Shown: positions 48,875 through 49,242 of the stretch, piece after piece
Layout: each line of letters opens with the position of its first letter
How positions within the stretch are numbered: position 1 is the first letter of the stretch
From: Eledone cirrhosa
Lineage: Eukaryota
Reading direction: 5' to 3'
DNA length: 64,000 bases
Assembly: GCA_964016885.1 (NCBI GenBank)
Contig: OZ024756.1
Coordinates: 23,932,001-23,996,000, forward strand
Made by a program: the position numbers and the translations under genes
The notes under the pieces: model-generated
Told to the model about the DNA's origin: nothing
Database searches by the model: none
The model's input: the letters and a program-made list of their open reading frames with translations, nothing else

Positions 48875-49242
48875 ATAGGAACCGGTAAGACCCCGACGGC
48901 TGAGCTCAAGCCGTTTCGACGGCTAATTCTGGACTGGAACCAGGTGGACCATAACGCACTAAAGTACTCAATACTTGGGGTAGTAGAGTGGGTAATAGGA
49001 ACCGGTAAGACCCCTATATACATAGGAAAAGAGTCAGGGCCCCGACGGCTGAGCTCCGGCCGTTTCGACAGCTAAATCCGAACAGTTCGACAGCTATATC
49101 CGAACAGTTCGGATCTAGCTGCCGAAACGGCCGGAGCTCAGCCGTCGGGGTCCTGACTCTTTTCCTATTACCCACTCTACTACTCTAAGTATTGAGTACT
49201 CTGGTGCGTTATGGTCCACCTGGTTTCTTACCATACTTTCTT

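Follow-up and report, generated by a model that had tools for sequence, protein, structure and literature searches.

Insertion ends of a Hydra-type Penelope-like retrotransposon in Eledone cirrhosa peak inside its predicted hammerhead ribozyme and at the predicted cut

The window analysed here is a stretch of 64,000 nucleotides from Eledone cirrhosa (contig OZ024756.1), whose minus strand carries a 139-base piece of a repeat family. Positions in the family are numbered from the predicted hammerhead cut, with +1 as the first base 3' of it. The piece consists of +1 to +79 joined to -41 to +19, enclosed within one target-site duplication of 8-10 bp. Segment A (48936-49014, minus strand) runs from the first base past the predicted cut into the tail of a Penelope-like element (PLE), which is the 5' UTR of the next unit, and has 2 mismatches over 79 nt to the intact element L234. 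Segment B (48876-48935, minus strand) runs from a putative capped transcription start at -41 to the first reverse-transcription (RT) initiation end, E1, with 1 mismatch over 60 nt to L234, and both of its limits, the -41 peak with an extra G and the E1 end, were found in sister copies. The 3' half of a type I hammerhead, comprising the 3' strand of stem II, GAAA, stem III, GUC and the 3' strand of stem I, lies at 48890-48925 on the minus strand and agrees with that part of the full ribozyme; by match to the full ribozyme fold, the predicted cut falls between 48895 and 48894 on the same strand.

The same 8-10 bases flank the unit on both sides, the left duplication occupying 49015-49022 (minus strand; 8 bp, or 10 bp counting the shared TA) and the right one, followed by (TA)n, 48868-48875 (minus strand). 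A two-armed copy of a sister subfamily adjoins it (49023-49247), with its E1 arm on the minus strand and its tail arm on the plus strand; the window copy was inserted at the end of this neighbour. The initial annotation had read (TA)n directly before 49014; the upstream sequence is only TATGTATATA, which follows the end of the neighbouring copy and occurs again past the far side of the unit, and thus represents a target-site duplication. Before the insertion, the empty site would have carried a single TGTATATA. The positions given for a 17-mer that delimits a 120-bp period were correct: it occurs exactly at 49014-48998 and 48894-48878 on the minus strand, and 4 matches with at most 3 mismatches were found in the window versus 0.01 expected. 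As had also been claimed, the second 17-mer (48894) is preceded by GAAA, stem III and GTC, and CTGANGA is missing from the unit, with no YUGANRA core in the unit or the doubled unit.

About eight related arms were observed within the window. Same-family arms from several subfamilies lie at 52238-52419, 61080-61270, 62300-62440, 44790-44960, 36600-36710 and 49340-49445; none reaches the catalytic core, and for this reason a CTGANGA scan near the family copies in the window found none. An Rfam search of the whole window returned microRNA-like matches below the curated scores and no hammerhead among the best 150 of 301, and the repeat-finder output for the window was dominated by microsatellites. 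Near-perfect long inverted repeats with weak matches to microRNA families occur at 49596-49695, 61416-61577 and 30154-30256 and probably represent other elements in two-armed form. At 18640-18690 on the plus strand lies a hammerhead-like motif of another family, compact and canonical (CUGAUGA, a 4-bp stem II, GAAAC-GUU and a TCTT/AAGA stem I), and weaker hammerhead-like candidates lie at about 99, 52530 and 61562.

A DNA search of the animal's own genome (3.0 Gb) gave 1424 candidates, 40 of which were scored. The 28 loci L003-L030 mostly consisted of an inverted short arm and a direct tailed arm within (TA)n; four reached further upstream, and tracing these copies brought out the ribozyme, a reverse transcriptase frame and a 3' region of 1.2 kb. 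The ribozyme or the cut-site motif was present approximately 620-710 bases upstream of the in-frame query point in ten of 19 further loci. The element is about 3.55 kb long and comprises the hammerhead, the tail with the 5' UTR, a 719-aa reverse transcriptase-endonuclease frame and the 1.2-kb 3' region. L234 retains the 719-aa frame intact from its start at +191, as a single ORF with a reverse transcriptase (YRDD at 348) followed by a C-terminal GIY-YIG-type endonuclease (YIGLT at 606). Its protein also carries RWR at 37, DKT at 117, the CxCx5C linker CNCPDRSIC at 572, CxxC as CNLC at 670 and CxH as CKH at 698, and by eye lacks CCHH. Pfam and PDB sequence searches with the 719-aa frame gave no match, so the domain assignment rests on these motifs; homologues of the frame at E<=1e-30 numbered 2070 of 7998 scored.

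As published by Craig et al. (2021, PMC8557442), the Hydra clade is marked by RWK, a change of DKG to DKT, CxCx5C, CxxC and CxH replacing CCHH around conserved E and N, and (TA)n targets. Its members, including Hydra-1_Obim, are alike in having a single reverse transcriptase frame with a C-terminal GIY-YIG-type endonuclease and RW[KR], and a hammerhead near the 3' end. The RWR variant is also published for Hydra-1_Crog (PMC8557442 supplement), and by eye the N-terminus of the 719-aa frame resembles that of Hydra-1_Obim (PMC8557442). The Eledone insertions likewise target (TA)n, contain the hammerhead in the pLTR and show a tail and an inverted 5' arm, as in PLEs generally. By its sequence match, the window piece is a short insertion of this high-copy autonomous PLE, and the motifs and (TA)n target make it a new Hydra-type family with a variant hammerhead. 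At about 3.55 kb it exceeds the size given for that clade ("generally <3 kb"), and its core is U3-A8 (C3-A8 in some copies) and its stem II is extended by about 40 nt, whereas the clade's published list has canonical cores (PMC8557442). The element type, the tail, the inversion and the U3-A8 core are already known features. Two other Hydra-type frames, 67% alike in DNA, adjoin a family copy at L032 (3126-4872, minus strand, and 7212-8999, plus strand), with RWK and DKT in one and CxCx5C in the other.

The terminal repeat holds a complete predicted type I hammerhead, with three helices round core positions 3-9, GAAA and NUH. The lowest-energy fold of a long copy adopts the type I topology unaided, with a long stem II. 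Long copies had been expected to carry GACCCC-CTGANGA; the literal form is absent, but a functional equivalent with UUGANAA is present, the whole-hammerhead pattern giving 5065 genome matches. Among 100 of these 5065 matches listed, position 3 was U in 81 and C in 19, position 8 was A in 98, the free position 7 took all four bases, and the C3-G8 core predicted earlier was found in none. The fold was no more stable than those of shuffled sequences (z -0.30), and an alignment of 21 close copies (92% identical) contained compensatory changes in 0 of 30 pairs, with 94% of cells paired and stem I invariant. U3-A8 is a published natural variant, the same covariation being reported from the terminal repeat of the Schistosoma mansoni PLE Cercyon (Cervera and de la Pena 2014, PMC4209133). 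The Cercyon variant is placed there among minimal motifs thought to be dimeric, whereas in the Eledone ribozyme stem III is 5-6 bp, stem I is extended and stem II is long. Normal 3-8 pairing is impossible in the C3 cores with A8 (19 of 100 among the matches listed). The C3-A8 subfamily (L244, L258, L259, L273 and 15 more matches) is widely spread, and a subfamily mark tied to C3-A8 was present at 5 of 8 such loci. The same mark was carried by 12 of 44 starts at +1 versus 34 of 100 read-through arms among the matches listed. A C-to-A change at the cut was considered as a ligation scar and rejected: 15 of 30 loci are such read-through copies, and against the family size the change looks like ordinary divergence.

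At their 3' side, insertions end at two fixed points, approximately +19 and +98 past the predicted cut. Tail-less arms matched to +20 in 68 of 75 cases, and tail arms matched to +100 in 73 of 90, TA overlap included. Two fixed arm ends about 80 nt apart fit the two internal RT start sites of Poseidon, a PLE of Anolis carolinensis, for which two adjacent internal starts defining the tail, and the use of uncut RNA, were reported in vitro (Frangieh et al. 2024, PMC11167929). Poseidon is also alike in its AT-rich targets and in uncut RNA as the main template, and differs in that its frame starts inside the ribozyme, whereas that of the Eledone element starts at +191 (PMC11167929). Sequencing contigs from four runs of one study (kind unrecorded) contained TA-flanked loose ends at both 3' end points and are uninformative on RNA starts. 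The first end point coincides with the foot of the ribozyme's extended stem I (L019, 1405-1525), a coincidence by which the fold may position the RT start.

The main 5' end lies near -41. A total of 167 arms were examined, 61 of them treated as unbiased; 48 of these 61 started between -46 and -24, none between -46 and -102, and 6 further upstream, and the arms beyond -46 all extend to at least -103. A TA-flanked pattern gave 1234 matches, 470 of them on the duplicate-free strand. The 77 distinct loci among 100 of the 1234 matches listed comprised 39 of the -41 class, 12 at -40, 12 at -39, 2 at -38, 11 at -42 to -44 and 1 inverted; the peak is broad (-38 to -44), and 18 of the 39 loci are ambiguous by TA microhomology. 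In a subfamily with genomic T at -42, the untemplated base before -41 was G in 45 of 48 cases and C in 3 of 48, a G count that a G-bearing master copy could inflate. The sequence at -41 presumably resembles an initiator. In L1, the cap shows up in full-length insertions as a G added at the 5' junction (PMC11702581), and the pLTR of Penelope contains an internal promoter (PMC2377424). We read the untemplated G before -41 as the signature of capped transcripts that begin within the ribozyme; such a start at about -41 is likely, as judged from DNA only.

A second, sharper class of 5' ends lies at the predicted cut, as had been expected from the initial annotation, which proposed an enrichment at GTC^GGGG. 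Among genome-wide tail arms with eight A/T directly before the position, 44 of 80 ends over nine positions fell on +1, with 2 at -5, 0 at -4, 11 at -3, 7 at -2, 3 at -1, 4 at +2, 3 at +3 and 6 at +4. For this count, forward-strand duplicates were collapsed by hand, and matches were dropped if further bases stood between the element and its flank; a near pair was left at +1 and another at -3, either of which could be a duplication. The +1 peak is 9.8-fold over the mean of the other positions (binomial p about 1e-21; 44 versus 11, p 4e-6), and +1 has no microhomology to the AT flank. Tail-less arms behaved alike: among 100 of 347 matches listed, 22 of 55 distinct loci started directly at +1, of which 15 were left after the removal of 5 microhomology-ambiguous and 2 duplicated ones (p 1e-5), and the other classes held 5 at +4, 4 at +3, 0 at +2, 4 at -1/-2 and 4 at -3. 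Among 100 of 2256 matches listed for arms lacking the consensus at -11, -10 and -8, once four arms with a G run lengthened by one G had been set aside, 12 started at +1 (one substituted) and a further 8 at +1 or -1; the other maxima in this set (15 at -7, 10 at +12, 9 at +7) reflect internal repeats, TA microhomology or degenerate positions. In the sister subfamily, +1 was again the top class, with 4 exact starts against at most 2 in any other class, a small sample. Several of these counts are hand tallies, taken in position order among the matches listed.

The +1 peak is real but minor. Tail arms reading through the cut numbered 18,334, and scaling gives 270-450 arms starting at +1, or approximately 1.5-2.5% of the read-through tail arms, an estimate in which the two patterns differ; an estimated 98% of copies read through the cut. 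The initial annotation had attributed the window copy to reverse transcription of a self-cleaved RNA, and the sharp peak of 5' ends at GTC^GGGG in both tail and tail-less arms agrees with that part of its proposal, whereas the 120-nt monomer, circle or retrozyme to which it was coupled did not hold. RNA cleavage at the predicted site is likely on this genomic evidence, against which stand the shuffle-level stability of the fold, its lack of covariation and the +1 starts still seen with the mark of the C3-A8 subfamily.

Both peaks might instead mark stalls of reverse transcription at RNA structure, at the base of stem III and at the apex of the long stem II, with no RNA end involved. A distance of two bases separates +1 from stem III, the predicted stem II extension has its apex at -45, and the spread from -38 to -44 is broad. 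However, a stall at stem III should stop at -1, where 3 cases were found, and not at +1, where there were 44; the ratio of 45 G to 3 C before -41 is not expected from stalling, and the arms that pass -46 all get to -103 or beyond. We consider stalling unlikely as the source of the peaks. A further reading takes +1 as a second, minor transcription start and the ribozyme as silent. An extra G on four +1 starts (3 tail-less arms among the matches listed and 1 in the sister subfamily) and the C3-A8 cores of a large subfamily speak for it, but it requires a start that coincides exactly with the scissile bond. The extra G is moreover less common at +1 (3 matches at 2 places versus 23 direct starts) than at -41 (10 versus 18), a borderline difference (Fisher p 0.02-0.06) in the direction that an uncapped cut end predicts. 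A silent ribozyme with a second start is accordingly a reading to which we give very little credence, and the +1 ends are better read as ends of cut RNA.

The window copy itself brings together the two classes of 5' ends, and its 120-bp period arises because +1 to +79 is joined to -41 to +19. The initial annotation read the 120-nt unit as one monomer, running from cleavage to cleavage, of a circular or multimeric RNA such as retrozymes produce, and the copy does begin at +1 and meet the next +1 after 120 nt. A strict genome-wide pattern for tail-to-head junctions returned 30 loci: 2 of the 30 share the exact breakpoint of the window copy, which thus recurs in one other copy (L002/L046), three others lie within a base or two, and the others break at various points of the tail end, in some cases with (TA)n separating the two parts. 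The nearest case to a retrozyme-like array is a short direct three-unit tandem with a 134-bp period and a different junction (L047/L048), the window unit being a single coreless period. Against a monomer, neither the unit nor its dimer contains a core, 28 of the 30 junctions differ, most with other 5' structures, the best BLAST matches (40 scored of 1424 candidates) split at the junction with the exception of L002, and the junction sits at the -41 hot spot common to ordinary arms. The family is moreover the end of an autonomous PLE. The window unit is not a tandem of at least two units with complete hammerheads, and copies share no fixed monomer (2 of 30), whereas metazoan non-LTR retrozymes, which are alike in their type I hammerhead, in a copy starting at the cut and in a link to PLEs, are described as tandem units of 150-450 bp with a whole ribozyme each (PMC7229834; bioRxiv 10.64898/2026.07.22.740005). 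From the coreless unit and the scattered breakpoints, we conclude that the 120-nt period is the product of one junction, and a 120-nt RNA monomer appears very improbable. Backsplicing was rejected as a source of the junction because +79 has no GT donor.

Two separate neighbouring insertions, followed by deletion of +80 to +98 and of a TA spacer, would also yield the two segments, and several of the 30 junction loci are indeed two insertions with (TA)n between them. In the window, however, a single target duplication encloses both segments and the junction falls exactly on -41, which makes two insertions here highly improbable; even so, this history would alter that of the window copy only and not the genome-wide peaks. 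The window copy instead probably arose by RT run-off at two different RNA 5' ends in one event, a capped end at -41 and a ribozyme-cut end at +1.

In the mechanism that we propose, an internal promoter would give rise to a capped mRNA whose first base lies within stem II, at about -41; because of this start, the mRNA would hold only the 3' half of the ribozyme and could not cut itself. RT from the two internal sites would run 60 or 140 nt to the cap, often adding a G, and run-off there would give the bulk of the short two-armed copies. Read-through RNA from an upstream tandem unit would carry a complete ribozyme: uncut, it would give the long copies, and cut, it would present an uncapped end at +1 and give the copies starting there (an estimated 1.5-2.5% of tail arms). 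For the window copy, RT would have started at +19 and reached a run-off at -41, then changed template to a cut RNA at +79 and continued to its end at +1. These data neither favour nor disfavour a circular RNA of about 3.55 kb, because a read-through copy made from a circle would look just like one made from uncut RNA. More tentatively, one locus may yield two RNAs, a half-ribozyme mRNA and a cleavable read-through, the 5' half of the latter perhaps cutting the cap from the mRNA in trans; the ribozyme might then restrain the expression and copying of the element to which it belongs, and insertion ends would document cap and cut as they occur in vivo. The 5' and 3' halves of the ribozyme are predicted to co-fold into a hammerhead approximately 11 kcal/mol below their separate folds.

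An internal promoter and a self-cleaving ribozyme in one short stretch are also combined at the retrotransposon 5' end in Pr77/L1TcRz of Trypanosoma cruzi L1Tc (PMC3383444). L1TcRz is HDV-like and belongs to a non-LTR element, whereas the putative Eledone start splits a hammerhead in two. For the Hydra clade, the cited sections of Craig et al. (PMC8557442) describe neither a start inside the ribozyme nor a cut-site peak, and the literature that we searched, a limited collection, held no prior report of either for a PLE ribozyme.

Both peaks bear on the role of PLE hammerheads. In vivo evidence for them was stated to be absent in 2014 (PMC4209133), and in the cited parts of the 2024 anole study the Poseidon ribozyme was dispensable in vitro and none of the RNA reads had an end at the cut (PMC11167929), whereas genomic 5' ends of the Eledone element peak there. 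If the interpretation is true, the tenfold peak at the scissile bond means that RNA cut by the ribozyme gets to the transposition machinery of the germ line, as a small share of the templates only, and the +1 peak would be a rare sign of a PLE ribozyme cutting inside the animal. A capped start in the ribozyme, if true, would explain the tens of thousands of short two-armed copies, most of them coreless. Counting insertion ends can be applied to any PLE family from the assembly alone.
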